IMG/VR virus record: IMGVR_UViG_2541047946_000018
Location: 1 to 38,363 of that record
Strand: one strand, 5' to 3'
DNA from: a virus
Taxonomy: Duplodnaviria; Heunggongvirae; Uroviricota; Caudoviricetes
Length of the DNA stretch: 38,363 nt
A model generated the notes under the pieces. It did no database searches and was not told the DNA's origin. It saw only the letters and a list, made by a program, of their open reading frames with translations. Made by a program: the position numbers and the translations under genes. Positions 1 through 28,150 of this stretch are shown here, piece by piece; position 1 is the stretch's first letter; every line of letters starts with the position of its first letter.

Positions 1-183
1 CGTACAGCCAATCTTTGGAGCAATGGAACAAATTGTCGCCCATTGTGAGTCATATTCGCCCTGACTTTCCAGAACCATACGGACTGCCCGTTGACGGACT
101 TCAGGGGAAAAACGAGTATTTTTAGTCATCCTGTTTACCTCTTTCTCAGGAAGTTTAGTCTCCAGGATTCCCGGGGCGGTTCA
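1..183 (-). mobile_element. IS629-like (IS3 family) insertion sequence, partial copy running off the left window edge; terminal inverted repeat ends at 183
   Basis: Bases 1..183 are the exact reverse complement of 11808..11990, the left end of the full IS copy, including the terminal TGAACCGCCCCGGG repeat and the orfA start. Confidence 0.85.
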
Positions 184-1076: not shown

Positions 1077-1179
1077 GTTAAATCTCCAGATAGTCGCAGC
1101 ACCCGTTGCGCCGCATATCTGGTTATTCTATTACCTGAAAAACCACATATGGATAGAAAGGGTGTGAATACGAACAGAT

Positions 1180-1196
1180 ATTACCTTTCAGGTAAT
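1180..1196. promoter_or_regulatory. 17-bp palindromic operator ATTACCTTTCAGGTAAT (consensus ATTACC-N5-GGTAAT)
   Basis: Perfect inverted half-sites; same motif as the tripartite site between cro-like and cI-like genes. Associated AACCACATA element at 1142..1150 and half-site at 1128..1133. Confidence 0.6.
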
Positions 1197-1234
1197 TTGC
1201 AAAACGTGCTGGATAGCAAACAAATTATTTGATA

Positions 1235-1250
1235 CTGTATAAATATACAG
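1235..1250. promoter_or_regulatory. LexA (SOS) box CTGTATAAATATACAG overlapping the -10 region of the downstream plus-strand gene
   Basis: CTGT-N8-ACAG with AT-rich spacer, one mismatch from the E. coli consensus CTGTATATATATACAG; 21 bp upstream of ATG 1272. Confidence 0.7.
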
Positions 1251-1271
1251 TTATTGCATGGAGAAGATAAG

Positions 1272-1529
1272 ATGCAGCAGTATCACTATCCACTGGAAGA
1301 CGGATTTACCGAAAGGATTCACACGCCGGGAGGCGTCAGGTCACTGGTGGAGGGATCGCACTTGATGAAATTACTCCGGGATCTCGATAAGGATGGATTT
1401 AATGTCGATGGCCCACTTGCCGAACTGACTGCACTGATTAACTACGTCACCAGCTCACAGATGTCTATGCGGGATCTGCAAACACATCTCGACTATTGTG
1501 CCGAACAATTACGAAAACAAACCCGGTAA
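1272..1529 (+). CDS. Small antirepressor-like protein, homologous to the C-terminal domain of the Bro-N protein at 2913..3605; likely SOS-induced
   Basis: ATG 1272 preceded by GGAGAAG RBS (the ORF track starts at TTG 1254). About 40 percent identity by eye to the Bro-N C-terminus (LMxLL..L..DG..V.G..AELT....Y.......LRD[IL]QTH..Y). Confidence 0.6.
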   Translation: MQQYHYPLEDGFTERIHTPGGVRSLVEGSHLMKLLRDLDKDGFNVDGPLAELTALINYVTSSQMSMRDLQTHLDYCAEQLRKQTR

Positions 1530-1553
1530 ATTTAAAGGCCGCAAGAGCGGCCA

Positions 1554-2060
1554 TTAACAGTCGTAAAATTCCGGGTCCCACAAACTTGCATCGCGCGGCA
1601 TGGATTCTAAATTTTTCAGCCGCAAAATTCTGTCACACTCGACAAGAAGTTTTTGTTTTTGTTCGTCAATTTCTACTTTTTTGTGTGCTGGCTCATCCCA
1701 GTAATCCAGAAGAAACGCATGTCGCTCAGACGTTACAAGATAAATCACATACACATCACTGGTTGGTATTTTTTTATGCTTGTTGGTGGTCTTGTCTTTC
1801 TTCCCGGATGCCCAGTTTTTCCAGCATTGTTCCGTACCGCTCTCACCAAACTTGTCAGTATAGTTTCCGATGTTTACGTGAACGTGGCGTATGTGATATT
1901 CCAGCATCTCTTTCGGTGGATCCCGAAACAGAGTGTCCTTTCCGAAATCCTTATGATGACCGTAGCGCCAGTGATCTATGAACGCGTTTTTGATAGGTAT
2001 TAGCTCAGGGTCCTTCCCAAAAATTCCAGGGTGAACCAACCCCTGGAATTTATTCAGCAT
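1554..2060 (-). CDS. YafO-like putative toxin (mRNA interferase family), paralog A
   Basis: ATG 2060 overlaps the upstream gene's stop by 11 nt. Shares HWR[YH]GHH, GKDTLF, HVHVNIG, TEQCW and YWDxPAH motifs with the paralog at 4049..4561; resembles E. coli YafO from memory. Confidence 0.55.
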   Translation of the reverse strand: MLNKFQGLVHPGIFGKDPELIPIKNAFIDHWRYGHHKDFGKDTLFRDPPKEMLEYHIRHVHVNIGNYTDKFGESGTEQCWKNWASGKKDKTTNKHKKIPTSDVYVIYLVTSERHAFLLDYWDEPAHKKVEIDEQKQKLLVECDRILRLKNLESMPRDASLWDPEFYDC

Positions 2061-2469
2061 CGTCGTAGAGCTCCTGAGCCATATCTTCGGCAGTGCGTGC
2101 AAACATCCTGCGCGAGATTGCATGAGATTTCTCGACGGACATCTTTGGGACCTCATGCATAACATTTTTGGGAGTTGTGTAATAGCCTATTACAATTTTC
2201 ACACCTGACTTATGATTAATATCAGCATAATATACTTCTTGTTCAGACGTTTCACGACGAACATAATCTGCCAGTTTTCCACATTTAAATTCCCCTCCCT
2301 GATGTTTTAAAATCTCCTCAACTGCACTATTTTCAGTGAAATACCGAATAAGAAATTTCTGTCCAGTCTCTTCAGCATGAGGTATAACAGTATTATTGGA
2401 AGCCCGAACAATGGCCTTACTCAATATTTCATGGTCTTTATTTTTTTCTGATTTCCTCAAATGCTGCAT
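2050..2469 (-). CDS. Small basic partner protein of YafO-like paralog A (putative antitoxin), acidic C-terminus
   Basis: ATG 2469 with GAAGAGAG RBS (track ORF starts at TTG 2505). N-terminal region similar to the partner at 3736..4062; not YafN-like. Confidence 0.45.
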   Translation of the reverse strand: MQHLRKSEKNKDHEILSKAIVRASNNTVIPHAEETGQKFLIRYFTENSAVEEILKHQGGEFKCGKLADYVRRETSEQEVYYADINHKSGVKIVIGYYTTPKNVMHEVPKMSVEKSHAISRRMFARTAEDMAQELYDDAE

Positions 2470-2504
2470 TACTGTAGCTCTCTTCGTGTTCACGGGCCCC
2501 CCCA

Positions 2505-2521
2505 ACTACCTCTAGGGTAAA
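2505..2521. promoter_or_regulatory. Operator-like site ACTACCTCTAGGGTAAA (one mismatch), just downstream of a candidate sigma70 promoter for the minus-strand module
   Basis: On the minus strand TTGCCA-18 bp-TAGAAT precedes this site, 36 bp upstream of ATG 2469. Confidence 0.45.
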
Positions 2522-2629
2522 CATTCTATCGAAAGTATACGCATACTGGCAAAAAAATAGGCAGGTATTTTCTGAAATGGGATCAATCAAACCACATAGG
2601 GTTGAAATAACGTGAGTTATGCATTTATT

Positions 2630-2646
2630 ATTACCTTTGCGGTAAA
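2630..2646. promoter_or_regulatory. Operator site ATTACCTTTGCGGTAAA with AACCACATA element at 2590..2598
   Basis: Near-consensus palindrome in the divergent intergenic region between the minus-strand module and the Bro-N gene. Confidence 0.55.
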
Positions 2647-2723
2647 TTTACATCGCACTCCTCTTGTGCCATAGTAATCGGGCACTGGCAAAATCCAGTG
2701 CCGGGATTGGTCTCCCGGATTAC

Positions 2724-2870
2724 TACAGAGGCACATATGCCGCATAAGCGGTTTTTTTATGTGTAAAGCGCACCTATTCTATGGTGGGCTGTGTGGGGGC
2801 ACCGAAAGGTGCGCCGGGTTCCTTTGTAGCCGGTAAGACCAACTCTGCACAGTTCACCACCATCTGATTG
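2724..2870 (+). repeat. Conserved non-coding element, copy A (Bro-N leader), homologous to 22221..22360
   Basis: Shared blocks GGCACAT..GC..CG.ATA.GCGG, GGGGCACC, GTAGCCGG and TTCACCA in the same order and similar spacing in both copies; several hairpins (GGCACTGG/CCAGTGCC, CCGGGA/TCCCGG, CCGC-ataa-GCGG followed by T7). Confidence 0.4.
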
Positions 2871-2912
2871 GTCTCAGCGGTGGTGATTAACCTAACTACA
2901 AAGGTGATCGCC

Positions 2913-3605
2913 ATGAATACCAAACCTTCCATCTTTTCCTTTGAGTCATCCTGCCAGATCCGTATGTTCATGATTGACGGAGAACCTTGGTTTGTCACCA
3001 AAGATGTGTGCAATGCTTTGAATATTGATGTTACACAAGCGAGAAAACTTGATAAAAAAGGCTGGAACAAAAAGGGGCTGTATTCAATACAGACCCCTGG
3101 TGGAATACAAGAACTATCCATCGTTTCAGAATCAGGTCTCTACATCCTTATTCTGCGTTGCAAAGAGGCAATGACTGAGGGAACGAGAGCATTCAGATTT
3201 CTTGAATGGGTTACAGGTGAGGTTCTTCCTCAGATCCGCCGCACCGGAAGTTACATTAAAAACTCGCTCCCGCAGGAAGAACGCATAAAGATGGTTGCCG
3301 ACCAGGTAGCCAACGCCACAGCATCAGCAGTGATGCAGGCAATGAAGATAGAGAACAAAACCTACAGCGCCCCGCTGAAGCCCGGCTACCGTAGCCTGAT
3401 TCATTCTCCGTCTGGTGTTCTCGGCCTGACGGAGAACTCACTGCTGATGAATCTGCTGAACCAGTTACAGGAAGACGGGCACGACGTATCGGGCGCGGCG
3501 GCGGAGCTGACCACCATGTTCTGCTACATCGTTGGTGTGAGCAAATGCCTGCGTGATATCCAGACGCACGCGGAGTACATCAACGACAAGGCAGGGTTCT
3601 TCTGA
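2913..3605 (+). CDS. Bro-N domain antirepressor-like protein
   Basis: ATG 2913 with AGGTGA RBS. N-terminal Bro-N signature (IRMFMIDGEPWFVTKDVCNALNI); C-terminal domain homologous to the 1272..1529 product. Confidence 0.7.
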   Translation: MNTKPSIFSFESSCQIRMFMIDGEPWFVTKDVCNALNIDVTQARKLDKKGWNKKGLYSIQTPGGIQELSIVSESGLYILILRCKEAMTEGTRAFRFLEWVTGEVLPQIRRTGSYIKNSLPQEERIKMVADQVANATASAVMQAMKIENKTYSAPLKPGYRSLIHSPSGVLGLTENSLLMNLLNQLQEDGHDVSGAAAELTTMFCYIVGVSKCLRDIQTHAEYINDKAGFF

Positions 3606-3614
3606 CAGAACGGC

Positions 3615-3640
3615 GGCACAGGGATGTGCCTTTAAATAAT
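3615..3640 (+). terminator. Possible intrinsic terminator after the Bro-N gene
   Basis: GGCACA-ggga-TGTGCC hairpin followed by TTTAAATAATT. Confidence 0.3.
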
Positions 3641-3677
3641 TCTGTACAGATTGCAGACTGTGGGTGAATAGCGTACT

Positions 3678-3694
3678 ATTACCTTAAAGGTAAA
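3678..3694. promoter_or_regulatory. Operator site ATTACCTTAAAGGTAAA overlapping a candidate promoter (TTGCAG-17 bp-TACTAT)
   Basis: Palindrome 42 bp upstream of ATG 3736. Confidence 0.55.
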
Positions 3695-3735
3695 CCTGTT
3701 TTTATTTTATACCTGTAACTTACCGGAGATTAAAG

Positions 3736-4062
3736 ATGACAAAACTTGGATTCGTGATGAGAGGTCCGGTAAGAAGCGGAACTCATGCAAAGCGTAGCAA
3801 GAGTCGTATTTTTACTGGTAAGGTTGTAGCACGTAAATCAGCTATTGGCTCGTTCAATAGTGAAAATGCGGCATTGCGCCATATTTTTATCAGCACAAAG
3901 CCAAGAGCATCCGCTGATGTGCATACAATGTCTATTCCTATCACAAAGAATATAAAGCGGATAAAAAAGCTCTCATCTGCAGAATCAAAAGAGATATCTT
4001 TCCGCCAGCTTAACTCATTAGAAACGCATATGAAGGAAGAGGAATTCGATGTTTTTGAGTGA
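3736..4062 (+). CDS. Small basic partner protein of YafO-like paralog B (putative antitoxin), acidic C-terminus
   Basis: ATG 3736 with GGAG RBS; stop overlaps the downstream start by 14 nt. Confidence 0.5.
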   Translation: MTKLGFVMRGPVRSGTHAKRSKSRIFTGKVVARKSAIGSFNSENAALRHIFISTKPRASADVHTMSIPITKNIKRIKKLSSAESKEISFRQLNSLETHMKEEEFDVFE

Positions 4063-4561
4063 GTATAGCGGGAAGGTTATACCTACTGGTGAGTTTAAAA
4101 CTGATGACTTTCTGATTTCGCTAAAAGATGCTTTTAAACAACACTGGCGTCATGGTCATCATCCTGATCTGGGAAAAGATACTCTTTTTGAAAGACCAGA
4201 GGAAGTATTAGGCTTCCATCTCAGAAAGGTTCATGTCAATATTGGTGAATATGCATCATATTCATACTCATGTACTGAACAGTGTTGGGATGAGTGGTCA
4301 TATGGATTGATTGATGAACAAGGAAATTACAGGCCAAAACCAACCAGTAACGCATATCTCATATATGCAGTCAATGAAATAAGAGATGCAGCCTTACTAG
4401 CTTATTGGGACCCGCCCGCACACACCAAAGCTAACGCAAAAGTTTGGATGGATTCCGTATTGAATTTCACAAAATTATTTCATGAACGAACGAATACAGC
4501 TCCACTTAGTAGAAATGTTTATCCGTGGGATTATTCGTACAAATCCAAAAAGCCTGCATAG
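4049..4561 (+). CDS. YafO-like putative toxin, paralog B
   Basis: ATG 4049 with GAAGGAAGAGGAA RBS; same motif set as paralog A. Confidence 0.55.
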   Translation: MFLSEYSGKVIPTGEFKTDDFLISLKDAFKQHWRHGHHPDLGKDTLFERPEEVLGFHLRKVHVNIGEYASYSYSCTEQCWDEWSYGLIDEQGNYRPKPTSNAYLIYAVNEIRDAALLAYWDPPAHTKANAKVWMDSVLNFTKLFHERTNTAPLSRNVYPWDYSYKSKKPA

Positions 4562-4642
4562 TAGTTTTTTATGGACGAAACAAAAGTCAGTGCTACACTC
4601 ATTGACGCCACATTGAGGTGGTTTATAGATGGAAATTTCACA

Positions 4643-4804
4643 ATGAAAAAAGCATTTGCTGCACTGTTCGTTTTGTTGTCTCTGGTAGCTTCAACTCAGG
4701 CCTTTGCCGGTCGTTGTCAGCACGACAGCGACACTGCTGCTGACGGCTCCCGCTGCGGTGGGCGTTCTGCGGATTCCCGCCCGGGTGGCGGTGGCATTCG
4801 TTAA
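4643..4804 (+). CDS. Possible small secreted peptide (53 aa), third gene of the paralog-B operon
   Basis: Canonical Sec signal MKKAFAALFVLLSLVASTQAFA; no terminator between 4561 and this ORF; terminator immediately after. Confidence 0.35.
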   Translation: MKKAFAALFVLLSLVASTQAFAGRCQHDSDTAADGSRCGGRSADSRPGGGGIR

Positions 4805-4810
4805 AAACAA

Positions 4811-4832
4811 GGCCGCGAAAGCGGCCTGTTTG
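4811..4832. terminator. Bidirectional intrinsic terminator between convergent genes
   Basis: GGCCGC-gaaa-GCGGCC hairpin flanked by AAAAACAA upstream and TGTTTG downstream. Confidence 0.65.
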
Positions 4833-4833
4833 A

Positions 4834-5685
4834 TCACTGTGCAGTTTTCGCTGATCGATTTTCAGCTCTAAATTCAAGAACCGTTTCAATATTTCTTTCC
4901 TTCAGCATATCAATAACATTTTTATTCATTTGACTATCACTGGTTAATAACTGGTAAACGTTGCTTCTCTCTTTATCAGAGTTTTCTTTAACAGCTGCTT
5001 TGCATGCCAAATGCTTATTGAAATTTTCTACATCGCTAGTACAGGAATTTACGGCTGCTGATGAAATATCAGACGCTGAAGAAACACCATCATCCAAACG
5101 TTTTATAGCATTTTCTATACATGAGTTAAGGGAATAAACGACAACTGAGCGATACCCTTCAGACGCACACCATTCTAAATTTCTTGAAGGATCGAGTGGT
5201 TTTACTTCGCTGGATTGAATTAACTTGTCAAAAACTGACTTATATTCAATCTGTTTTTTATCTATAGCCCATACTTCAGTAGCTGATTTATAATTCCCCG
5301 TATGCCTATTAACATCAAACCCATGTTTTATAAGCAAATCTGCCCATGAAAGATTTATTGATTCATTGTTATGAGGCCATTTTCCTGTCAGAACCGCCCC
5401 CATAGACCCCATATATCCGCCATATGATGGTATAGCACCATGGCTCAGTAACTTCTCAGCAACCACAGGGCAATTAATTACATAAGAGGCGTAAAGCCCA
5501 TTCCATAAAGCCCCTCTATAGTAATCGCCACGATTAGGTTCTTTTAAGTCGATAGCCTTTGATAATTGTTCACACGTTTTGCATGCATCAAAGTTATCCT
5601 TATTGCATTGCAATGAACTGGCAGCTGTAGGATTTACAGAGACTATTGAAAGCACTATGCCAAAAAACAAATTTATTTTTTTCAT
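4834..5685 (-). CDS. AT-rich moron: secreted protein with possible ankyrin-like repeats
   Basis: Signal peptide MKKINLFFGIVLSIVSVNPTAASS; ANK-like segments (LLSHGA, LLIKHGFDVN); low GC versus neighbours; starts 1 nt after the gp16-like stop. Confidence 0.6.
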   Translation of the reverse strand: MKKINLFFGIVLSIVSVNPTAASSLQCNKDNFDACKTCEQLSKAIDLKEPNRGDYYRGALWNGLYASYVINCPVVAEKLLSHGAIPSYGGYMGSMGAVLTGKWPHNNESINLSWADLLIKHGFDVNRHTGNYKSATEVWAIDKKQIEYKSVFDKLIQSSEVKPLDPSRNLEWCASEGYRSVVVYSLNSCIENAIKRLDDGVSSASDISSAAVNSCTSDVENFNKHLACKAAVKENSDKERSNVYQLLTSDSQMNKNVIDMLKERNIETVLEFRAENRSAKTAQ

Positions 5686-5686
5686 C

Positions 5687-8600
5687 CTATTTCATCTGTT
5701 CTTCAACTTTATTTAGTAATGGTGATATCGCCCACAGATTCTGAAAAGGTAGCATTTTACGGACAGCGTGGGTTTGCTGGCTGTCAAATTCTCCGTTAAG
5801 TACACCATTCGCAACCGTCGCGGCATCACCGCCAAGATCAAAGGTAGGACCAAGTAAAGCACCAATAGCATTACGACTCTGAAACCTTGATACCGGAGGC
5901 GCACCAAACATCGCGCCAAGACCAAACCTACCGCCGCTTATGTTCTCAACGGTATTCAGCGGCTCAGAGAGCCAGCCAAGCATTCCGCCCCGGTCGATCC
6001 CCTCTTTCACAAGGTTATTCCAGCTGTAGTCAATATCGCGACCGCTTAACTTCTGTTTCATCATATAGACCATTGAGCCAAGCGCAATCGTGCCAAGCGC
6101 ACCAAGATAGAATGCAGCATCGCCCTGCTGGATACCAGATACCAGCACCCTGTTATGCTGTGCGAAGATAAACGTTTTGAACTGCGTGATCATCTTCCAG
6201 CCTTCTTTACTAAAAAACAGCGGTGTATCACCTACGCCAGGCGTTACAATCACTGAGTCTACATCTTTCAGCACTGCAGACTGGAAAATCTCTCTAGCGA
6301 AACGGTCATCCCACAGATGACTATGCCCGGTTAACAGCCCGTCCATATCCTCTCCGTGCTTCCCGAATTGCTCCCCGATTCGGCGCAGAACATCTTCATT
6401 GATGCCGACCTGTGCCATCTTCCGCATTTCACTTTTGGAGAGCGTGCCACCAGCAGAAACTTGGCGAGCCGCGTCAAGTATCCTCGACTGCACTATCATC
6501 CCGGACCATGATTTAAGTGCGCTGTTCCACTGATTCATCAGCGTCCAGTTACCGAATTTCTGCGTCATCCAGTTCAGACCTCGCTCAGCGGCGCTTCTCC
6601 GGCTATAGGGGTCAGTAAGATCCGCTATAGCCTTTGTACGCGTAGACAGGACATAATCAAGCCCAACGGCCATTTCTCGCAAATCCCTGGTTGCAATTTT
6701 CACTGAGTCCATATTTTTAAGCATGCTTACCATTGGTCCGAGAGATTTTCTCAGGCCATGCTGCATCATCGGTCGCATCAGATCAGTTGCAGCGGAGACA
6801 GTCATTCCACCAAGCAAACGGAGGAAGTTAATATTCCTAGCAACTCGCCCGGCACGAACAAAGAAACTGCGTGGATCTTGAGGTGCACCGTAAGTACCAA
6901 GCAGTCGATCACGCATAGCCGTAATATCCCTAATATCAGCCTCCCGTTGCTTCTCAAGAACTGCACGTCGTTTAGGTGTTTTAGCCTCTTTTATTAGCCG
7001 GGTATATTCCTCACTAACCTGACGGATTTGCTCCCCCATATCTTTACGGCCAAACTGCGCAGTCAGCTCAATTTCTGGTGCCACCTGCCGGAGATAACTT
7101 TCCATGATGTAGTTAACATCTGATTCAAGAAAATCTTCTATACGCTCATCAGGAATAAGCAGCGTTCTGCTTTTAGTGAAACCAGCCCGACCAACGAGTC
7201 TCTCTGGGATAATATCGGCTGGTACAAGCCCGGAAGGTGCGCCTATTATTTTATTCACGATCTCGTCAGCAGCGTCCTCTGCTTCCTCTCGGGATAGAGG
7301 CTCCATCTGCTTCAGTGCTCGTTCGCGGCTTGCATTCAGCCTTGTGGTTGAATTTGCCCGTTTTTGCAGTCGGCGAAGCTCAGAACGATATTTCCGTGGA
7401 TTATCCAACAACTCCATATGACGCTGATAGACAGGAAGCTCACTCTTTGCCTGCGCTATATCATCAAGGCGTGTTTTAAGGTCAGAGCTTTCTTTCATCA
7501 TTCTTGCCTGAAGTTTTTCTGATGAAGTCTCGGCCAACTCTTTTTCTATTCTTGTAAGACGCGCCTGTGTGTCAGTCTCCTGAGATATAAGCTTATTTCG
7601 TTTATCCAGTTCTTCCATGAGTAGAATTTTTTTACCAGACCATTTCTCCGCTTCAGCGATTTCACTAGCGAGAGCATCAGCGCGCGGTGCCGATTCCTCT
7701 GCAGTTTTTAGCAATGAATTTATCCTTTCAATTCGCTGACCTGCTTTGTCAGCACCTTTGGCACTAATCCCTTGTATCCAGTTGGCAATTCGCCCTCTGA
7801 ATTCAGTGCGGTCGGAAAGTATCTTATCGAACTTATAAATGCGGGGAAGATAACTTTTCGCCGTCACGACATCGATATCCTCAGGAAGGATCCCCAGTTC
7901 CTGCATACGGGCTTTTGTGGTCTCGAAAATGGGGCGGATTCTAGCGGCTGCTTGTGAAACCTCAGGAATATCACTCTGATCACCACGGCGCATAGCCATG
8001 CCAACAGCTTCATTGAAATCAATAAAGTTCATCCTCTTCACGCCGCGGGCGCTAACAGATTTGCTGTACTGCTGGTAAGCATCACGAGTGGCTTCCATCT
8101 GCTTATAAAGCATGGCGTCGTATTGCTTAATCTTAGTCTCGACTGCCGTAAACGTAGCCAACCCCTCATCATTTTTGGCGAAGAAATAGTTATTTTCGGC
8201 AAGCTGCTGGTTAATCTGACGGGAGACAAGAGATGGTGATTGCGCCAAGCGGCCAGCAGGAGTGACACTCAACGTTTTGTTAGCAAGTCCAAGTCCAGCG
8301 AGCTGTTCCTGATCGAGTGTGGTATTGAAAACCTGAGCTGCACCAATGCTTTGAGGAGAATCCATACCTCGCAAATGATTACCTACTGAGTTAACCACTG
8401 CCTCGCGCGCGCCAGGTCCAGCAAGTAGCTGTGCACCAGCACCAAGGATCCCACCAACGAGAGCATCAACAACAACGTTCGATACGCTCTCCATCGGTGA
8501 GCGAGCTTCCTGAGTGGCCTGTAATGCGGCCTCTGAAGCAACACTGCCAGCAGCATTCGCCAGGGCAAAACGCCCGGCTGTTTCTGCAATACGACCGCCA

Positions 8601-9076
8601 CGAACGACAGCGCCGAACGGAATAAACATAGAAATCGCATTGAATGGATCTGCTAATCTCATTGCTACAGAAGAGACTGTACCAGCAAATCCCAAGCCTG
8701 AATTGTATTCCATGTCAGCTCTCTGCTGATCGATTCGATGTTTAATTGCCATTGTTTCTTCAGGCGAACCGGAGTTGATAAACGAATCTGCAAAATCTTC
8801 ATAGCCTTTAATATCTGCTGCATCGTTATCAAATGGGTTATATCCTTCAACCCTGTCAAACTGACTGAAAGGAGCACTGGCAATAAAGCTACCCAGCGTG
8901 TTATCTATACGAAATGCTGCTTGTCTAGACCTTTGAACGCGTTGATCACTGGTAAATGGGTTCACAGCAGAAAGCAAAGAAGGTGTTTCCATATAGAAAT
9001 TACTGTCATCAGGTGCTGCTATTTGCTGAATATCCTCGCCAAGCAACTCTTTAGGATCCTGTTCATATATCGGCAT
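5687..9076 (-). CDS. Internal virion/ejection protein, T7 gp16-like by position and size (1129 aa)
   Basis: Large ORF in the T7-like gene order after the gp15-like gene; coiled-coil-rich centre. Confidence 0.55.
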   Translation of the reverse strand: MPIYEQDPKELLGEDIQQIAAPDDSNFYMETPSLLSAVNPFTSDQRVQRSRQAAFRIDNTLGSFIASAPFSQFDRVEGYNPFDNDAADIKGYEDFADSFINSGSPEETMAIKHRIDQQRADMEYNSGLGFAGTVSSVAMRLADPFNAISMFIPFGAVVRGGRIAETAGRFALANAAGSVASEAALQATQEARSPMESVSNVVVDALVGGILGAGAQLLAGPGAREAVVNSVGNHLRGMDSPQSIGAAQVFNTTLDQEQLAGLGLANKTLSVTPAGRLAQSPSLVSRQINQQLAENNYFFAKNDEGLATFTAVETKIKQYDAMLYKQMEATRDAYQQYSKSVSARGVKRMNFIDFNEAVGMAMRRGDQSDIPEVSQAAARIRPIFETTKARMQELGILPEDIDVVTAKSYLPRIYKFDKILSDRTEFRGRIANWIQGISAKGADKAGQRIERINSLLKTAEESAPRADALASEIAEAEKWSGKKILLMEELDKRNKLISQETDTQARLTRIEKELAETSSEKLQARMMKESSDLKTRLDDIAQAKSELPVYQRHMELLDNPRKYRSELRRLQKRANSTTRLNASRERALKQMEPLSREEAEDAADEIVNKIIGAPSGLVPADIIPERLVGRAGFTKSRTLLIPDERIEDFLESDVNYIMESYLRQVAPEIELTAQFGRKDMGEQIRQVSEEYTRLIKEAKTPKRRAVLEKQREADIRDITAMRDRLLGTYGAPQDPRSFFVRAGRVARNINFLRLLGGMTVSAATDLMRPMMQHGLRKSLGPMVSMLKNMDSVKIATRDLREMAVGLDYVLSTRTKAIADLTDPYSRRSAAERGLNWMTQKFGNWTLMNQWNSALKSWSGMIVQSRILDAARQVSAGGTLSKSEMRKMAQVGINEDVLRRIGEQFGKHGEDMDGLLTGHSHLWDDRFAREIFQSAVLKDVDSVIVTPGVGDTPLFFSKEGWKMITQFKTFIFAQHNRVLVSGIQQGDAAFYLGALGTIALGSMVYMMKQKLSGRDIDYSWNNLVKEGIDRGGMLGWLSEPLNTVENISGGRFGLGAMFGAPPVSRFQSRNAIGALLGPTFDLGGDAATVANGVLNGEFDSQQTHAVRKMLPFQNLWAISPLLNKVEEQMK

Positions 9077-11790
9077 TATTTGCCTCCTGCGTATATATTG
9101 CTCGGAAGGTAATTGGCTGAACCATAACCGAATGGTTTGGTCAGATCTGGAGGAGTATATCCATCTTTATTGCTGAACTGCGGCAGCGGATTGCCTTCTC
9201 TCCGCACTCTAGCCTCATCAACACGCTGTTGCTGGAACTGAATGGTTTGCCTGTACATTGGAGATGTCAGCTGATCCGGCTTGAAACGAACAGGGAGACC
9301 ATTTTCTCCAATATAATTTCTCGGTTCTATCGCTCCGTTTGCGTCAGGCTGTAAAACCATAACAGCATAACTCCTATCCCTTGCCGTAAGGCCATCAGAA
9401 ACAAGTATTAAGTCCGTATCACTGCGAGGACCGCCAAAGGATTTTGATTTAAGCTCGCGTTTTTCCTGCTCCCACTGCCCCTGTATCCAGTTACCAGCAC
9501 CATTATTTACTCCGTACAATGCCTCAGGTGCATACTTCATAACCTCTGCTTTGCCATTAACCGTAGAAACTCCCCAAGTGGTTCTGATCATGGCATTGGT
9601 CATTTTCTCAGCCTGTTCTGCATCGCCACCTGTCTGTACAAAGTTAGCATCGTAAATTGTCTGGTAATCTCGCTGATAGGCCGCATTTGATTTTCCTGGA
9701 TCGGTAATATCCGGAGACCACGAACCAAAGGAAGTCAGACTGCTGGCGTTATTTTGTGCAGCAGTTGCCCTCGCCGCGACATATTTTTTGTCTCGCATGG
9801 CAGTGGAAAGCATCTGTTTCATTCGGTCATCCTGTTGGAACACCTGGCTGTAAGCCATATCAACAGCCTTATCCTCCGGCACGCCAGCGCGGGAATAATC
9901 GTAAACCTTGCCGTAAAATGCCATCGTACTTTTATCAAGTGTTGCCGCTGCCGCCGGATTATTATCGAATAACTGACCGTAGAATTTTGCCATCGGGACA
10001 ACCAGCGCAGGATCTCTTGATGTTGCTCCACTGTTAAGCATTGTTTTAACCTGAGTTGGTATCATGCCGCTTTTAGTTGTGACGGTGACCAGTGTATTGA
10101 TGCTCTGCGGATCAGATATGGAAAACGAAGGCGCGATATCCTGCGCGAAATAACGGTCTACCGCTGCCTGATTGTTTTTGTCGTTCGGGTCCAGCGGGAA
10201 GTTATTTTGCATTGAAGACACGAACCTGTTTCTTCCCTGCTGAATCTCCCACTCCCTATCCATCTCTTTAAATTTGGCCTGCATTTTCTCCCAGCGTTGC
10301 TGGTTAGCTGCAAATCCAGGAGCGTTTGGATCCTGTGGACGTAAACGTTCAAGAATGTCTTGTCGTCCTTCTGGAGTGAGGTCTTTAGCGGCACCAATGA
10401 CACCTCCATATTGTATCTGCGCCTGCATATCCTTCCACTTCATAGCGCCAATGCGCGGACCATTGGCCCGGATAAAATCGTCCTCAGAAGGTAACTTCTC
10501 AGGTTTCAATCCTTCATCAAGGGCTGAATATGCATCTTTAACTACGGTGCTAAGCTGGTCCGCATACTGCTGGCGGTACTGATTTCTCAGCTCATTAGCC
10601 TGCCTCAATGCCTGTATTTGCATTTGAGGGCTCATAGCATCAAATGCCGCATTGCCCGTATAACGCTTAGGTGAATCAAGGTTAGTTAGACCAAGGGCTG
10701 CCGAGATACCAGTTTCAAGCTGTTCGGTGCTATAAGGCATACTGCCATTTTCGTGTTTAATAATCCCAGCACATAAAGCAGCTAGTGTCTTTGGGTTAGA
10801 GATATCAAGCTGATCATTCTCCCCAACACCAAGCTCACCACACAATGCCCTAATATAAGCATCAGTATTATTACCATCACTAACCGGAGCATAGCGATTA
10901 ACAATCTCGCTAACGGTGTCATAGCCTTGACGCTGGTAAGACAACATATTTTTACCCAACGCGCGGATTCCATGCTCAGGGGTAGCAAACGTTGCAAAAC
11001 GTCCATCGCTACCGATCTGACCTTCCCACGGGTTAGATTTGCTCGCTTCAATATTACCAGGGTTATTATTACGTAAACCACGAGCATCCAATGAATTACC
11101 ATGTGATATTGCACGACTCACACCATCAAGATCCCCTGGCTCTCCATTAACCTGAAGAAACTCGTTGTATTTTTGAGCGATATTTCCTATCCATGCTTGC
11201 TGCCCCATTTGTTCCTTGAGCTGAGTTTTCTGCTGAACACGCCACTCATCAGGAAGCCCATGCGCATCAGCGTATTGATCAATAGATTCAAATCGCTGCT
11301 TGGCTAAATCGACAAATGCTTGGTTATCGCTATATAGCCCCGCAGACTGAGTGACAGCCAATGCATTTCCTGACAAATACGTTTGATCTTGGAATTGCTG
11401 AAACTGCCCAACTTCATATCGACGTGCCTGATTGTAATAAGACTGCATAGACTGCTGGAGTTGAAAGGATAATTTATTCCTTTCCTCACTTTCAGGAATT
11501 GAGCCTAATAATGCCTGAGCCCTTTCCTGCATATTTTTCATAACAGCGTCACTCTGACCAAGAGCGTTTTTACCCTGTTTAGAAATCAGCCCACTTTCAG
11601 GGTTGTTAATCTGGTCATCTGCAAATTGGTTAAATTGCAGTAACGCCTCCTGGGCCATAGCAACATTCGCTTTCTGCCTGGCTTCACCATATGCCACCGC
11701 ATACTGATCTGCGACATTCGCCAGCACCTGACCTGCTTGAGGAACATCGAAGATCTGAAAACCACCGGTTTGCACACCACGACTTTGCAC
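9076..11790 (-). CDS. Internal virion protein, T7 gp15-like by position (904 aa); GTG start 18 bp from the IS end
   Basis: ORF begins GTG 11790 with weak RBS; contains a conserved NNPGNI-containing domain of unknown function; the IS sits immediately upstream. Confidence 0.5.
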   Translation of the reverse strand: MQSRGVQTGGFQIFDVPQAGQVLANVADQYAVAYGEARQKANVAMAQEALLQFNQFADDQINNPESGLISKQGKNALGQSDAVMKNMQERAQALLGSIPESEERNKLSFQLQQSMQSYYNQARRYEVGQFQQFQDQTYLSGNALAVTQSAGLYSDNQAFVDLAKQRFESIDQYADAHGLPDEWRVQQKTQLKEQMGQQAWIGNIAQKYNEFLQVNGEPGDLDGVSRAISHGNSLDARGLRNNNPGNIEASKSNPWEGQIGSDGRFATFATPEHGIRALGKNMLSYQRQGYDTVSEIVNRYAPVSDGNNTDAYIRALCGELGVGENDQLDISNPKTLAALCAGIIKHENGSMPYSTEQLETGISAALGLTNLDSPKRYTGNAAFDAMSPQMQIQALRQANELRNQYRQQYADQLSTVVKDAYSALDEGLKPEKLPSEDDFIRANGPRIGAMKWKDMQAQIQYGGVIGAAKDLTPEGRQDILERLRPQDPNAPGFAANQQRWEKMQAKFKEMDREWEIQQGRNRFVSSMQNNFPLDPNDKNNQAAVDRYFAQDIAPSFSISDPQSINTLVTVTTKSGMIPTQVKTMLNSGATSRDPALVVPMAKFYGQLFDNNPAAAATLDKSTMAFYGKVYDYSRAGVPEDKAVDMAYSQVFQQDDRMKQMLSTAMRDKKYVAARATAAQNNASSLTSFGSWSPDITDPGKSNAAYQRDYQTIYDANFVQTGGDAEQAEKMTNAMIRTTWGVSTVNGKAEVMKYAPEALYGVNNGAGNWIQGQWEQEKRELKSKSFGGPRSDTDLILVSDGLTARDRSYAVMVLQPDANGAIEPRNYIGENGLPVRFKPDQLTSPMYRQTIQFQQQRVDEARVRREGNPLPQFSNKDGYTPPDLTKPFGYGSANYLPSNIYAGGK

Positions 11791-11861
11791 CTGGCGTCCG
11801 GATGTAGTGAACCGCCCCGGGAATCCTGGAGACTAAACTTCCTGAGAAAGAGGTAAACAGG

Positions 11862-12188
11862 ATGACTAAAAATACTCGTTTTTCCCCTGAAGTCCGTCAA
11901 CGGGCAGTCCGTATGGTTCTGGAAAGTCAGGGCGAATATGACTCACAATGGGCGACAATTTGTTCCATTGCTCCAAAGATTGGCTGTACGCCGGAGACTC
12001 TGCGTGTCTGGGTTCGCCAGCATGAGCGGGATACCGGGGGCGGTGATGGAGGGCTCACCACCGCTGAACGTCAGCGTCTGAAAGAGCTGGAGCGTGAAAA
12101 TCGTGAACTGCGCCGCAGTAACGATATCCTTCGCCAGGCTTCCGCTTATTTTGCGAAGGCGGAGTTCGACCGCCTCTGGAAAAAATGA
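11862..12188 (+). CDS. IS629 OrfA (IS3-family transposase N-terminal HTH part)
   Basis: [31 protein letters not shown]...; recognised IS629/IS3411-type OrfA; A6 slippery run at its 3' end. Confidence 0.85.
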
Positions 12189-13075
12189 TGCCACTGCTGG
12201 ATAAGCTGCGTGAGCAGTACGGGGTCGGACCGCTATGCAGCGAACTGCATATTGCCCCGTCAACGTATTACCACTGTCAGCAACAGCGACATCATCCGGA
12301 TAAACGCAGTGCCCGTGCGCAGCGCGATGACTGGCTGAAGAAAGAGATACAGCGCGTATACGATGAAAATCACAAGGTATACGGTGTGCGTAAAGTCTGG
12401 CGTCAGTTGTTACGGGAAGGTATCAGAGTGGCCAGATGCACTGTGGCACGTCTCATGGCGGTTATGGGACTTGCCGGTGTTCTCCGGGGTAAAAAGGTCC
12501 GTACGACCATCAGCCGGAAAGCCGTTGCCGCAGGCGACCGCGTAAACCGTCAGTTCGTGGCAGAACGACCTGACCAGCTGTGGGTGGCTGATTTTACTTA
12601 CGTCAGCACATGGCAGGGCTTCGTCTATGTGGCGTTCATCATTGATGTGTTTGCCGGATACATTGTGGGGTGGCGGGTCTCATCGTCCATGGAGACGACA
12701 TTCGTGCTGGATGCACTGGAGCAGGCGTTATGGGCCCGTCGACCGTCCGGCACGGTCCATCACAGTGATAAAGGTTCTCAGTATGTATCGCTGGCCTACA
12801 CACAGCGGCTTAAGGAAGCCGGATTACTGGCATCAACAGGAAGTACAGGCGACTCGTATGACAACGCGATGGCGGAGAGCATCAATGGTCTTTACAAAGC
12901 GGAGGTAATACACCGTAAGAGCTGGAAAAACCGTGCAGAAGTGGAACTGGCCACACTCACGTGGGTGGACTGGTATAACAATCGACGATTGCTGGAAAGG
13001 CTGGGCCATACTCCTCCGGCAGAAGCAGAAAAAGCTTATTATGCTTCCATCGGAAACGATGATCTGGCAGCCTGA
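12185..13075 (+). CDS. IS629 OrfB (transposase catalytic DDE domain)
   Basis: Overlaps orfA in the -1 frame; rve-type integrase core by family knowledge. Confidence 0.85.
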
Positions 13076-13135
13076 GTTCACAGATAAAATACTCTCCAGG
13101 AAACCCGGGGCGGTTCATAGTAGGAACAACAGGCA

Positions 13136-13711
13136 TCAGTAACCTCCTATTTTGAATCGGGAGTCAGAATTCATAAAACCTGAGTTAGATAACATTGGCG
13201 TCCCACCACTAGATGTACTTCCTTTAGAGAACGGACTCCACGTCCCACCAAACATCTGGTACGCACCGTATGCCTTCAGAGGCGCAGTGAGCAATGTTGT
13301 TGCTGCTCCCACATTCCCCTGTTTACGGGCTGAACTGGCTTCTGCTTTATAGTTGGCAGCCTGAACCTGATAACCGTAAGCCTCGCGTTGCGCGTTATTC
13401 ACCGTCGTCAGCGAATCAAGAGCGCCAAACTGGGCAGTGTCGCCAAATATATCCAGCGCGTTACCGGTAGATAAATCGGCGCCGGTCGCCCCCATTGTCG
13501 CCGCTTGAGTACCAAGCCGCTGTCGGGTCTCTCTGCGCCGTTGCTCAGCTTCAGCGTTACCTCTGTTTATTGCATCATTTGCCTGAGCAGTGGCTATATC
13601 TGCGTTCGCTTCTGCAACCTTCGAGACATACTTTCCCTGTTGGTACTGGGTGTATGCCTGAATGCCACTCATGGCGAGCATTGCGCCACCAGCAATAACC
13701 GGATCGCACAT
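13136..13711 (-). CDS. Internal virion protein, T7 gp14-like by position and size (191 aa)
   Basis: Ala/Gln-rich low-complexity protein following the gp13-like gene; stop is 18 bp from the IS right end. Confidence 0.5.
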   Translation of the reverse strand: MCDPVIAGGAMLAMSGIQAYTQYQQGKYVSKVAEANADIATAQANDAINRGNAEAEQRRRETRQRLGTQAATMGATGADLSTGNALDIFGDTAQFGALDSLTTVNNAQREAYGYQVQAANYKAEASSARKQGNVGAATTLLTAPLKAYGAYQMFGGTWSPFSKGSTSSGGTPMLSNSGFMNSDSRFKIGGY

Positions 13712-14175
13712 TATTTTCTCTCCATGTGAAATCTGTGGAAATTAAGACCAAGAGCACCATAAGGCGCGGCTTCTTCAAGCCTGAATCCAAGCCAGTGCAG
13801 CCATGCTTTGGCAACATGGTTTCGCTCGTCGACGTAGTTTTCCAGGCGCGGATAAACTGCCAGCATCTGCTGCAATACAGGTCGGCAGTGGCGAAGAAAT
13901 GTCTTCTGATATTTTTCAATACGGCTGGTCCCGACCAGCCAGGGCGTACCATTGCCACCGATCATTGACGCCGGAGATACGCCAAACATGGTTACCAGTT
14001 CTCCGTTCGCAAATCCTGACCAGGCCATAGTCGCAGTACGCAGACCAACACGCAGCGCATCTTCGGTAGTCATCAGTGATACCGCATACAGTTCGTCAAT
14101 ATCAGCCTGACGAACATCCGGCAAAATCATCTGAAGATGCTCTTCGGTAGCGGGAATAATTTGAACATCGATCAT
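13711..14175 (-). CDS. Virion protein, T7 gp13-like by position (154 aa)
   Basis: Position between the tail tubular B and gp14-like genes; start overlaps the upstream stop. Confidence 0.4.
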   Translation of the reverse strand: MIDVQIIPATEEHLQMILPDVRQADIDELYAVSLMTTEDALRVGLRTATMAWSGFANGELVTMFGVSPASMIGGNGTPWLVGTSRIEKYQKTFLRHCRPVLQQMLAVYPRLENYVDERNHVAKAWLHWLGFRLEEAAPYGALGLNFHRFHMERK

Positions 14176-16646
14176 CAGAATCCCCCAACAGTAAGGCGAG
14201 GAATAACGGCAAGAACAGACAGCGGCAACGGGTCAAGCTGACGGATTTTTACACGCCCGTTTTTGCCCCAGTTACTGTCCAGTTTCACTTCTACTTTTCC
14301 GGTAGCATCATCAACAGGATCATCGTAGAACTCGAATTCACGCTGTGGATATTCGTACCATTTACCGCCAGGCGTAGTCGCCCAGATGCCGCGACTGGCA
14401 TTCACAACCAGAGTAACGGATGGGATCACCTGTTTTTTGTCCAGCAGCGTTTCCTGTCCGTTAATGTTGATATCCAGTGTTTCGAATTCAGCAGTTATTG
14501 GCAGGCCGATGTGCACTACAGCCCCCGGAGATTCCAGCGTGACGGCACCTCCGGAAACCACTTTCTGTGGTTCCACGTTCGCATCAGAGAGAATGTTTAC
14601 GGTCTGGCCTTCAAGATGAGACAGGCCTCCAAATGTCCGGCGCGCCATCTGCCAGTTCGTGGTGGCCACATTCCTGAGGGATGGCGGGACGTTCCTGTTA
14701 ACACGAACCACTACAGCGGTATTACTGGTTACAGAAATAATGTCGCAACGTAATTCTTTTGACACCTCATCGCCAGTATCAGGATCAGTTCCGGTATAAG
14801 GGAACTGTAGTTGCGCGCCGACATCACTACTGGTGAAGTACGCACCACCAGAAACACTGATTGTATATTCCGCGCGGTAATCCCATTCGCCAGAACCACC
14901 AGTGATGATCATCGTTCTGTCAGACGTATTTCTTCCATCATAGCTAAGGCCAGAATCAACAAAGAAAGCATCTTCATCGCTGGTAAATAAACGGCTGGAC
15001 AGTCGCTCGATGTATCTCACTGTTTGCCCGTTAACGGTTCGGTTAACGACGAAATACACCGCATCTTCATTGCCTTCGCTGATACTGCATGTGCTTTCAT
15101 ATTTTCCGGTACTGGATTGTGGTGCCCATGCAAAAACCTGCTGATCACGCAAATAGGTCATCACCAGTAATTTACCGTCATCACGGATGCAGAAGGCGCT
15201 GGAGTAAGGGACTATTGAGAAGCACCAGTCAACAATGCTGTGCTTCTGAAAAAGATGATTGGCAAGGATAGTAAGGTCGTTCCCCTGATAGCCGTCAACA
15301 TCGAATGAGTAGGCGAGATCACGGACAACACTGCCTTTCTCCTGGACGAACAGAGCAATATTCGCCACGGCAATTGGTGGGACATTGCTCGAGCCATTTG
15401 ATCCCTGAGAGCTGAATGCAAATGATGATGGGGTAAGCACTTTGTTCTGGTCGCCAGTGATGACGTACTCACCTCCGGAAGTCAGCGCCACCAGCGAACC
15501 AACATCAATCAGGTGACGGATCTCATTAACCTGACGCCCGGCATAGGTGTAGATAATTCTGTCGTCATCCTGCGTAGGATTGCTTTTGCCAAAATCCTTA
15601 TAATCCCCAGTACGGCTGGCCCAGATAGTCTGAGGGAACGCAGTCGATGCGGCGAAGTAAAGACGTTGTTGATAATAAACAACAGTGCCAGGATAACCAT
15701 TAACACTGTTCCAGGCATATTTAGCCCATTTATAGCTGGCATTATCCTCGCCAACGACCTGCGAAGGGATATAGGAAATCACCTCGGCAGTTGCAGTAGT
15801 GCCGTTTACAGCAGTGATACGGGCAATGCCAAAACCACTGTGCAGATACTCCCACTCAATGCCAGTATCATCATCACCGGATCCGCCCCAGCCATCCCAT
15901 GATGTGCCTTCTGTATGCGAAGGGCGCAAAGTACCTGTTTTGCCTGCTGTAACGGCGCGATAGTAGTTACTGTCTGCACGGCGAATATCGCCAATCGACG
16001 TACTCTTACTGGTTTCCCATACCGGTACTGAATCCACTGCTGGCTGTTCCAGATAGAACAATTTGCCTACCTGCTCCGCGCCAAAAATAGAGGCGCTTGC
16101 CGTTAACGTAATTGTCCCGGTGCTGGCGCTGGCATAAACCGTCACTGACTCGTCAATATTGATATCTTCAAATGGTCCGTTCTTCGTTACCACATCAACC
16201 AGTTGCCAGTTGTCATGCGCATAGCGACGCAACTCTTTCGGCGGGTATGCCGGATGAACCAGCGTAAGCACGTCGGCGCTTTGCGTGAATTTAATTCGGA
16301 ACAGATCGGCTTCAGTATATGGCGTGGAAATTTCATAAATAACATTGCTGCTGTTCAGCACCAACGCACCATCTTTGATAACGCGCATGTACTGGTGTCC
16401 GAACTCCAGAGCATAAGTCTGAACCGTCGAGAACTGGAACGGGATCAGGCGGCATTTCCGATTTGGATATTTGGCGGCACCGACAAAACGCGTACCAGGT
16501 CGATTCTCAACGCCGCCATACTGCCGCACGATAAAGTTATCGCACTTGCGCAATGCCACCTGGTACTTCGCCATGTCAATACGCCCGTACAACGACGGTC
16601 CAATCTCACCACCGGCAAAGCTGGGCTGGATCCAACTGATAGCCAT
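14175..16646 (-). CDS. Tail tubular protein B (T7 gp12-like, 823 aa)
   Basis: Size and position after tail tubular A in the T7-like order. Confidence 0.6.
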   Translation of the reverse strand: MAISWIQPSFAGGEIGPSLYGRIDMAKYQVALRKCDNFIVRQYGGVENRPGTRFVGAAKYPNRKCRLIPFQFSTVQTYALEFGHQYMRVIKDGALVLNSSNVIYEISTPYTEADLFRIKFTQSADVLTLVHPAYPPKELRRYAHDNWQLVDVVTKNGPFEDINIDESVTVYASASTGTITLTASASIFGAEQVGKLFYLEQPAVDSVPVWETSKSTSIGDIRRADSNYYRAVTAGKTGTLRPSHTEGTSWDGWGGSGDDDTGIEWEYLHSGFGIARITAVNGTTATAEVISYIPSQVVGEDNASYKWAKYAWNSVNGYPGTVVYYQQRLYFAASTAFPQTIWASRTGDYKDFGKSNPTQDDDRIIYTYAGRQVNEIRHLIDVGSLVALTSGGEYVITGDQNKVLTPSSFAFSSQGSNGSSNVPPIAVANIALFVQEKGSVVRDLAYSFDVDGYQGNDLTILANHLFQKHSIVDWCFSIVPYSSAFCIRDDGKLLVMTYLRDQQVFAWAPQSSTGKYESTCSISEGNEDAVYFVVNRTVNGQTVRYIERLSSRLFTSDEDAFFVDSGLSYDGRNTSDRTMIITGGSGEWDYRAEYTISVSGGAYFTSSDVGAQLQFPYTGTDPDTGDEVSKELRCDIISVTSNTAVVVRVNRNVPPSLRNVATTNWQMARRTFGGLSHLEGQTVNILSDANVEPQKVVSGGAVTLESPGAVVHIGLPITAEFETLDININGQETLLDKKQVIPSVTLVVNASRGIWATTPGGKWYEYPQREFEFYDDPVDDATGKVEVKLDSNWGKNGRVKIRQLDPLPLSVLAVIPRLTVGGF

Positions 16647-17251
16647 CAGGACAACCTCGCAATGGTAAACTCATCAACCGGTGGCTGTGGTTCCTGTGAT
16701 TCATTCTGGCTATGCGAGCCAGCACTAAGAATCACGCGATTGTACATATTGAGGGCAAACGTACCGAGGTCTGCATTCCCAGTCAGCGCCATGTTAATAG
16801 CTGCCGCAAGACGCCAGGCCAACGCCTCCATAAAAATGGCATCAAACATGTTCACATCTGTAACGCGAGAGACATACTTGAGCCATGCCTGAGGCTGGTC
16901 TGTGTAGATCAACTTTCCTGTTCCGTCGGTGTCTGCACCAACTTCGTACTGAACGCGCATTGCTGCTGTTGGATTGCGTACACCAGGAAGCATAATTTCA
17001 GTAATGCGCAGACAATCGGACGGGTACTGGTATGCGTATTCCCAGTCTGGCGGCGGATTGCTCGTATCTGCAAGCGCCACGCGTTTGGTAGCAAAGTTCC
17101 AGTCAAAATCAGAAAGCACAGCATCACGGCAGGCCTCAAAGTGCAGCGAACATTCCCCCGCTTCCTTGCTGGCTTCCGTCAGGCTGTTAATACTGCGGCT
17201 GTTGCCAATATTGGACAGCGCACGATTGCAGATCTCTACTACAGAGGCCAT
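16646..17251 (-). CDS. Tail tubular protein A (T7 gp11-like, 201 aa)
   Basis: Size and position; hairpin plus GGAG RBS upstream. Confidence 0.55.
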   Translation of the reverse strand: MASVVEICNRALSNIGNSRSINSLTEASKEAGECSLHFEACRDAVLSDFDWNFATKRVALADTSNPPPDWEYAYQYPSDCLRITEIMLPGVRNPTAAMRVQYEVGADTDGTGKLIYTDQPQAWLKYVSRVTDVNMFDAIFMEALAWRLAAAINMALTGNADLGTFALNMYNRVILSAGSHSQNESQEPQPPVDEFTIARLS

Positions 17252-22462: not shown

Positions 22463-22539
22463 GTGGCATTAGCTCAGTTGGACAGAGCAACCGCCTTCTA
22501 AGCGGTTGGTCGCAGGTTCGAATCCTGCATGCCACGCCA
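22463..22539 (+). tRNA. tRNA-Arg (anticodon UCU), argU-like
   Basis: Cloverleaf: acceptor GTGGCAT/ATGCCAC, D-arm TAGCTCAGTTGGACAGAGC, anticodon stem ACCGC/GCGGT with loop CTTCTAA, T-arm GCAGGTTCGAATCCTGC, discriminator G plus CCA; close to E. coli argU. Confidence 0.9.
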
Positions 22540-22761: not shown

Positions 22762-23580
22762 ATGAAAAACTTCAAGGTAATTAGCATGTTTGAATCGTTT
22801 AAAGAGCTGTTTTTATCTACTGCCAATACTGCCGTGAATCGAGCCAAAAACCCTGTGCTTGGTGCTTTTGTTATGTCCTGGTGCGCCTTCAACTGGAAAT
22901 CAATTCTTTATCTATTTTTTAGCAAATCAAACATAATAGATAAAATTTCATATATCTCAGATAACAGCACATGGAAAACTGTTATGTTTTATCCATGCTT
23001 ATCTGTAATTGCTATCTGCTGCCTATTACCATGGGTAAACAATATCATTAACGTATGGCAAGCAAAGCCTCTTGATAATAATGACTCAATCGAAAATCAC
23101 CTGAAGGCAAGAAAAATCCAGCGTGAAACCAGACTGCAGAGGTTATTGGCTAAAAAAGATGTTACATACGACAAAGTTAAGACTGGCGCGGAAAAAGACA
23201 TCCAAGAGATGAAAGAAGAGATTATTCGATCAAAGAATAGTATGGGGGAATTGACTGCTGAGTTGAAAGCTAAAGATGACGAATTGAGATCCGCCAGTGC
23301 TCAGTTAGCAGCTCTAAATCATTCATTAAAAGAGATATCGGAAACTCTTGGAAGAATGAATGAGGCATATAAGACCCTCCAAAATGATTTCGACGAATAC
23401 AAACTCAAATACCCTGAAAAATCTCAAATAAAAAGTCTTGCACTTGGCAACGGCCAAACAATTAGCAACTTTTTGGAGCAACACAACTTATCCGGATTAA
23501 AATCTGGTAAGCCAGACGTTTTTAATAACTTTGGTGTTCTATCTGGATTATCAGGTTTCGAGGATAAAAATAAAGACTAA
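22762..23580 (+). CDS. AT-rich moron: membrane protein with two predicted TM helices and a long C-terminal coiled coil; candidate superinfection-exclusion or abortive-infection factor
   Basis: Start ATG 22762 or 22786 (both have RBS); hydrophobic segments VLGAFVMSWCAFNWKSILYLFF and VMFYPCLSVIAICCLLPWV; low GC; stop codon overlaps the TerL stop tail-to-tail. Confidence 0.6.
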   Translation: MKNFKVISMFESFKELFLSTANTAVNRAKNPVLGAFVMSWCAFNWKSILYLFFSKSNIIDKISYISDNSTWKTVMFYPCLSVIAICCLLPWVNNIINVWQAKPLDNNDSIENHLKARKIQRETRLQRLLAKKDVTYDKVKTGAEKDIQEMKEEIIRSKNSMGELTAELKAKDDELRSASAQLAALNHSLKEISETLGRMNEAYKTLQNDFDEYKLKYPEKSQIKSLALGNGQTISNFLEQHNLSGLKSGKPDVFNNFGVLSGLSGFEDKNKD

Positions 23581-28149: not shown

Positions 28150-28150
28150 A

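Follow-up and report, generated by a model that had tools for sequence, protein, structure and literature searches.

A complete IS629 element has entered codon 7 of a gene that encodes an internal virion protein of 915 aa, and it has most probably inactivated this gene in a structurally defective prophage. We assign a probability of about 90% to this reading. The DNA that was analyzed, referred to as the window, is a stretch of 38,363 nucleotides from a virus record (IMG/VR IMGVR_UViG_2541047946_000018). The element inserted antisense to the late operon and duplicated a TAG target. The prophage would be grounded and accumulating IS hits, two of them by IS629 and one by an IS2-like element. An IS629 knockout of a prophage structural gene is an ordinary event that is already known, and the anatomy described below fits the known behaviour of the element. 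The case is one more example of the known preference of IS629 for prophages, and its main value lies in a correction. The 904-aa "intact" protein that appears in gene calls is an artefact of ORF calling on an interrupted gene. For annotation and for judging viability, the label "possibly attenuated" gives way to "structurally defective prophage", as two essential virion genes carry three IS disruptions.

Position of the insertion and the interrupted gene

Both genes flanking the element lie on the minus strand and are transcribed from high to low coordinates. The uninterrupted sequence was reconstructed by removing the IS together with one TAG and reading the minus strand. This reconstruction gave ...AAAATAGGAGGTTACTGATGCCTGTTGTTCCTACTACATCCGGACGCCAGGTGCAAAGT... 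and revealed an ATG (13136..13134, minus strand) which shares 1 nt with the TGA of the 191-aa gene upstream (TGATG). The ATG is in the same frame as a GTG at 11790 and follows 6 nt after the Shine-Dalgarno sequence AGGAGG (13143..13148, minus strand). In phage Tyrion a ribosome binding site is annotated at the place equivalent to this AGGAGG. The reconstructed protein has 915 aa and begins MPVVPTTSGRQ-VQSRG....

Four complete E. coli genomes contain the reconstructed 800-bp empty-site junction with 100% identity, and matches to 80% or more of its length occur in 67 genomes. In the free phage EC.W1-9 the empty site is 99% identical. Annotation was read for two uninterrupted records only, those of E. 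coli strain E-1246 (RefSeq) and of EC.W1-9 (depositor). In both records the CDS comprises 2,748 nt, encodes 915 aa and starts at the reconstructed ATG. The 1-nt stop/start overlap between the two genes (TGATG) was present in every uninterrupted allele examined. The preliminary description had allowed that an uninterrupted homolog extending upstream of 11790 would make the insertion intragenic; such homologs were looked for in relatives and found in E-1246 and EC.W1-9.

Codons 1-11 are kept as MPVVPT[T/V]SGRQ via synonymous changes in three further phages. Tyrion carries MPVVPTTSGRQ, TL-2011b and phiV10 carry MPVVPTVSGRQ, and the ATG is invariant. Codon 12 is GTG in Tyrion and GTT in both TL-2011b and phiV10, and therefore it cannot be the start in the latter two phages. 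In the alignment to the phrog_1044 profile, residue 2 of the ORF beginning at the GTG corresponds to profile position 13, and residues 2-892 align to positions 13-900. Since the uninterrupted alleles, the conserved codons 1-11 and the PHROG 1044 alignment all extend the gene upstream, the insertion is intragenic. IS629 sits inside codon 7 of the 915-aa CDS and not between genes.

The interrupted gene consists of two parts. An orphaned 5' stub (13118..13136, minus strand), delimited by the reconstruction, the annotated starts and the conservation, holds the ATG, codons 2-6 and the first base of codon 7. The body of the gene (9076..11807, minus strand), delimited by the ORF list, the reconstruction and phrog_1044, has neither its own start codon nor its own ribosome binding site. 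The element had been described before as lying in a 32-bp gap between two intact coding regions, the second of them starting with the GTG at 11790. This gap turned out to be nt 2-33 of the downstream gene, comprising the last two bases of codon 1 and all of codons 2-11, and the two genes overlap by 1 nt instead. The GTG is codon 12 (Val). The gp14-family gene upstream is indeed intact; the downstream gene is split at codon 7 and has lost its start and ribosome binding site.

An insertion of IS629 into a 32-bp intergenic spacer, which would leave both CDSs intact, retain a native GTG start at 11790 and affect coupling or transcription only, is extremely unlikely. It agrees with a mechanical ORF list made on the interrupted sequence, which gives a 904-aa GTG ORF ending at 11790, and gene calls on the UMEA scaffold give the same 904-aa product. 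In contrast, the uninterrupted alleles add 11 upstream codons, reaching an ATG that is preceded by AGGAGG and overlaps the TGA. These 11 codons are conserved at the protein level in three diverged phages, in two of which the GTG is GTT, and the PHROG profile holds about 11 more N-terminal positions than the GTG ORF.

The upstream gene (13136..13711, minus strand) encodes a T7 gp14-family internal virion protein of 191 aa. It matched Pfam PF24072 (T7_gp14) over residues 1-167 with 32.6 bits at a cut-off of 27, and phrog_418, labelled "internal virion protein". The earlier label "gp14-like" is upheld by the Pfam threshold that was passed. The companion label "gp15-like" is positional: it reflects the place of the gene and the PHROG "internal virion/endolysin" classes. 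A search of the 915-aa protein against Pfam and NCBIfam matched no family, that of T7 gp15 included. Its only PDB sequence matches define an endolysin-like domain at approximately residues 247-399 of the intact protein (7q47 "Endolysin", E = 5e-15; 9vvp "Gp29", E = 6.6e-35). PHROGs groups the protein with "endolysin", "head protein" and "tail injection transglycosylase" families.

The gp16-position gene (5687..9076, minus strand) encodes an internal virion protein of 1,129 aa and matched phrog_342, labelled "internal virion protein with endolysin domain", with E = 2.2e-233. The interrupted gene ends in a stop codon that shares 1 nt with the start of this gene. The three genes form the internal-core/ejection module of a podovirus. 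They have the same order and sizes as the gp14/gp15/gp16 core (ejectosome) module of T7, and PHROGs classes both the 915-aa and the 1,129-aa proteins as internal virion proteins. In T7 the endolysin-like domain sits on gp16, whereas here it is found on the gp15-position protein. The 1,129-aa protein also gave a Pfam match to DUF919, a nucleopolyhedrovirus (baculovirus) family, with 23.4 bits (cut-off 21) over a 46-residue stretch, and RefSeq names its equivalent in E-1246 "DUF919 family protein". This match is probably marginal rather than a meaningful relationship and was set aside.

Anatomy of IS629 and its second copy

The IS629 copy is complete, comprises 1,310 bp (11808..13117, plus strand) and has the boundaries TGAACCGCCCCGGG...CCCGGGGCGGTTCA. 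It opens with TGAACCGCCCCGGG at 11808, and the inverted counterpart closes at 13117. The element had previously been placed at 11791..13135, which is the span between the two ORFs; apart from these limits its physical description was accurate. Over 1,310/1,310 bp the copy is 99.9% identical to the feature "IS3 family IS629" of LC567824.1. The records matched at 99.9% are Stx-phage records in which IS629 was annotated by the depositors. The left terminal inverted repeat (IRL, 25 bp, 11808..11832, plus strand) matches the reverse complement of the right end at 23/25 positions, and the right repeat (IRR) is located at 13093..13117 (plus strand). The ends TGAACC...GGTTCA show the 5'-TG...CA-3' form, and the length is the ~1.3 kb of IS629.

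The transposase genes lie on the plus strand, antisense to the phage late genes. The first, orfA (11862..12188), encodes 108 aa with an HTH_Tnp_1 domain (Pfam PF01527, E = 6.1e-13). The second, orfB (12185..13075), is in the -1 frame relative to orfA and encodes 296 aa with the DDE/rve integrase core (PF00665, E = 4.8e-28); it scored 315.7 bits against the NCBIfam model transpos_IS3 (cut-off 160). An A6 run read at the overlap of both genes (12180..12185, plus strand) is presumably the IS3-family -1 frameshift site, whose position it shares. The identification as IS629 was confirmed by the full-length 99.9% identity to an annotated IS629 together with the Pfam and NCBIfam IS3 transposase matches, and the length and inverted-repeat ends, the two-ORF layout and the 3-bp duplication agree with it. 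Both ORFs and both inverted repeats are intact and the copies are identical where compared, which suggests recent IS629 activity.

The target-site duplication TAG is present on the left at 11805..11807, which in the interrupted CDS are nt 17-19 (minus strand CTA), and on the right at 13118..13120, as located by the empty-site alignment. The empty site of E. coli E-1246 aligns with 100% identity up to window position 11808 and resumes at 13118. The two halves of this alignment overlap by 4 nt on the empty-site sequence (TAG and one ambiguous T). Because of this alignment the duplication is real and not a chance 3-mer. A simple transposition with a 3-bp TAG duplication, as described before, was thus verified against an empty site.

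The first 183 bp of the window (1..183, minus strand) are the left end of a second, inverted IS629 copy which is cut by the window edge. Their reverse complement is identical at 183/183 positions to the first 183 bases of the IS, and this bears out the earlier report of an inverted copy 11.6 kb away. The segment between both copies (184..11807) comprises 11,624 bp. Scaffold KE702418.1 (GCA_000461395.1), which matches the window with 100% identity throughout their overlap, contains this other IS629 copy completely. There it interrupts the tailspike gene near codon 298 as a simple insertion flanked by an AGC duplication of its own, and removing IS629 and AGC restores the tailspike reading frame. 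Within the window the tailspike is represented by a 5' fragment of about 298 codons (184..1076, minus strand) which is truncated by the IS629 copy and matched phrog_8649 (1-298/743) and phrog_1640 (1-293/765). The two IS629 copies are identical wherever they can be compared, over 1,028 bp in a metagenome contig and over 208 bp + 227 bp in KE702418.1. This identity points to a recent copy-and-paste event within the genome.

Further 3' in the tailspike gene, outside the window, a 1,331-bp IS2-like element with a 5-bp ATCGG duplication was found. Its assignment to IS2 is tentative and draws on the form of its ends, its length and its 5-bp duplication. The tailspike gene is broken twice, by the IS629 copy and by the IS2-like element, and an ORF of 991 aa is obtained when both are removed. 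The C-terminal part of this ORF shows weak Peptidase_S74 and faint End_tail_spike Pfam marks (KE702418.1:10001-15760).

The two IS629 copies and the 11.6 kb between them might be regarded as a single unit, either a composite transposon that moved or a segment that was inverted. The copies have the corresponding geometry: they are inverted, identical where comparable, and both IRL ends face the 11.6-kb segment. Such an origin is nevertheless most improbable. Each copy possesses its own matched duplication (TAG/TAG and AGC/AGC), whereas a recombinational inversion would leave mismatched flanks (TAG with GCT). A continuous reading frame returns on removing each copy, and across both junctions the genes keep the order and orientation that they have in EC.W1-9. 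Because the duplications are matched and the gene order is that of EC.W1-9, no inversion has happened so far. The preliminary description had considered that the copies could drive inversion or deletion. Homologous recombination between inverted copies inverts the segment and cannot delete it.

Predicted consequences for the late operon

The native AGGAGG and ATG would now drive only a chimeric peptide of 59 aa. Its reading frame, taken from the ORF list (12957..13136, minus strand), begins with MPVVPT, continues into antisense IS sequence and stops inside the IS. The body of 904 codons starts ~1.17 kb after this stop, with antisense IS sequence in between. These remaining codons, ~1.3 kb further on, would have the former internal GTG (Val-12) as their sole start. 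The GTG at 11790 has no convincing Shine-Dalgarno sequence, just GGA before it. A promoter scan found no sigma-70-like promoter reading out of the left end of the IS toward the gene body. In the IS3 family an outward -35 element is located in IRR, and the IRR of this copy faces away from the gene body.

The tail-protein genes, the 915-aa CDS and the 1,129-aa gene are chained in this order by 1-nt stop/start overlaps. The protein of the interrupted gene is presumably no longer produced. Owing to the long stretch without translation and to the lost translational coupling, less of the 1,129-aa gp16-position protein, and possibly of the products of later genes, is to be expected. Expression of the gp15- and gp16-position genes is very probably lost, as far as can be judged from sequence. 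The disturbed expression of these genes postulated in the preliminary description is therefore retained in qualitative terms; the primary lesion is the loss of the gene's own start. When an IS enters the 5' part of a gene in a translationally coupled operon, that gene is lost and lower expression of the distal genes is expected. The present insertion resembles in this respect the classical polar mutations caused by IS1, IS2 and IS3 in the gal and lac operons, with polarity being a prediction here.

A weak 5-bp hairpin followed by a T-run was noted inside IRR on the phage-sense strand (13108..13096). It was not relied on as a terminator, the number of terminator-like sites being 5 against an expectation of 2.2 ± 1.6 for shuffled sequence.

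Initiation at the GTG, or readthrough from a late promoter across the IS, could yield a low level of a protein shorter by 11 residues. That the insertion is tolerated or even selected, with a functional N-terminally shortened protein made from the GTG and a prophage viable at this locus, is very unlikely. The 904 codons are still open and carry no further mutations, with 100% identity over 4.4 kb to the intact allele of E-1246. Such a lack of decay, however, equally fits a recent insertion, and the IS copies are still identical. The GTG is preceded by no sequence resembling a ribosome binding site beyond GGA, by no outward promoter-like site and by ~1.17 kb of untranslated antisense IS RNA, and the tailspike gene is broken twice anyway. 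Internal core proteins and tailspikes are essential in T7-like and epsilon15-like podoviruses, and on this basis the prophage could probably no longer make infectious particles.

The host prophage and the spread of the insertions

The host element is, by its sequence relationships, an epsilon15/phiV10-like podovirus (Uetakevirus-like) prophage of E. coli. The window is colinear with EC.W1-9 and 92-99% identical to it over the aligned blocks. Partial matches were also obtained to phiV10, TL-2011b and Tyrion (Uetakevirus). The window runs from the tailspike fragment at its left end to the integrase at its right end. All three IS insertions lie in the virion-structure module; no interruption is apparent in the genes for integrase, repressor, replication and lysis. 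Holin, endolysin and Rz-like genes are present in KE702418.1, and lysis might still occur on induction. The clustering of the IS hits might reflect selection for "grounding" of the prophage in a gut-commensal lineage and not neutral decay. As another possibility, recombination between the identical inverted IS629 copies might serve as a switch by which the 11.6-kb segment is inverted in part of the population; both ideas are speculative and very unlikely.

The spread of the insertions was followed by exact-protein look-up of two junction-specific ORFs. The truncated product of 904 aa was found on 22 contigs, whereas 26 contigs carry the chimeric tailspike product of 313 aa. The same look-up found the intact 915-aa protein on 196 contigs. 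Among the named carriers of the junction products are E. coli UMEA 3609-1 and UMEA 3592-1, together with several isolate and human-gut metagenome assemblies. Records with the junctions include EQZ35123.1, EQZ38821.1, EFW2042632.1 and HAI4413478.1 as well as GCA_027683285.1 and GCA_043996875.1. A metagenome contig of 11,848 bp begins and ends in IS629, as is expected from short-read assembly when one genome carries both insertions. An assembly artefact was ruled out by the identical junctions in independent assemblies. Both insertions are real, and they have become fixed in a lineage that circulates. Neither IS/phage junction (400 bp each) was present among 5,426 complete RefSeq E. coli genomes, which gave thousands of IS-only half-matches. 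Carried by at least 22-26 contigs and by none of these 5,426 genomes, the junctions serve as lineage markers.

In four O157:H7 genomes 62% of the IS629 sites are located in prophages or prophage-like elements, and no sequence-specific target was found (PMC3271280). The insertion described here involves the same element as that in O157:H7/STEC prophages (IS629, with isoforms IS1203 and IS3411), the same habit of entering prophages and the same simple insertion with a 3-bp duplication. The host differs: instead of a lambdoid Stx phage it is an epsilon15/phiV10-like podovirus prophage, residing in non-O157 E. coli (UMEA isolates, gut metagenomes).

The comparison with the intact allele of E-1246 covered window positions 7408..17251. 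On the gene-body side of the insertion the identity is 100% over 4.4 kb, and on the other side it is 98.8% (50 mismatches over 4.1 kb). Such a step is suggestive of recombination between related prophages, with a breakpoint at the insertion or close to it.

Several further features of the prophage were noted. The right edge of the window is the start codon of the integrase gene (37107..38363, minus strand) and aligns to position 34301 of EC.W1-9, the annotated integrase start. The attachment site and the host flank on the integrase side lie outside the window. The large subunit of the terminase (491 aa) is encoded by an ORF with a GTG start at 23577..25052. A tRNA-Arg gene (anticodon TCT; 22463..22539, plus strand) is located inside the prophage, with the portal region on one side and the terminase region on the other, and is encoded on the strand opposite to that of the late genes. 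The early/accessory stretches 22958..23652 and 26656..29105 have no or only patchy matches in EC.W1-9, typical of mosaic replacement. The internal-virion module and the tailspike are separated by a block (1254..4561) whose genes are mostly on the opposite strand and include one for a Bro-N/Ant-type anti-repressor (2868..3605, plus strand). EC.W1-9 has this block too, but window positions 3649..4564 have no match of at least 200 bp in that phage.
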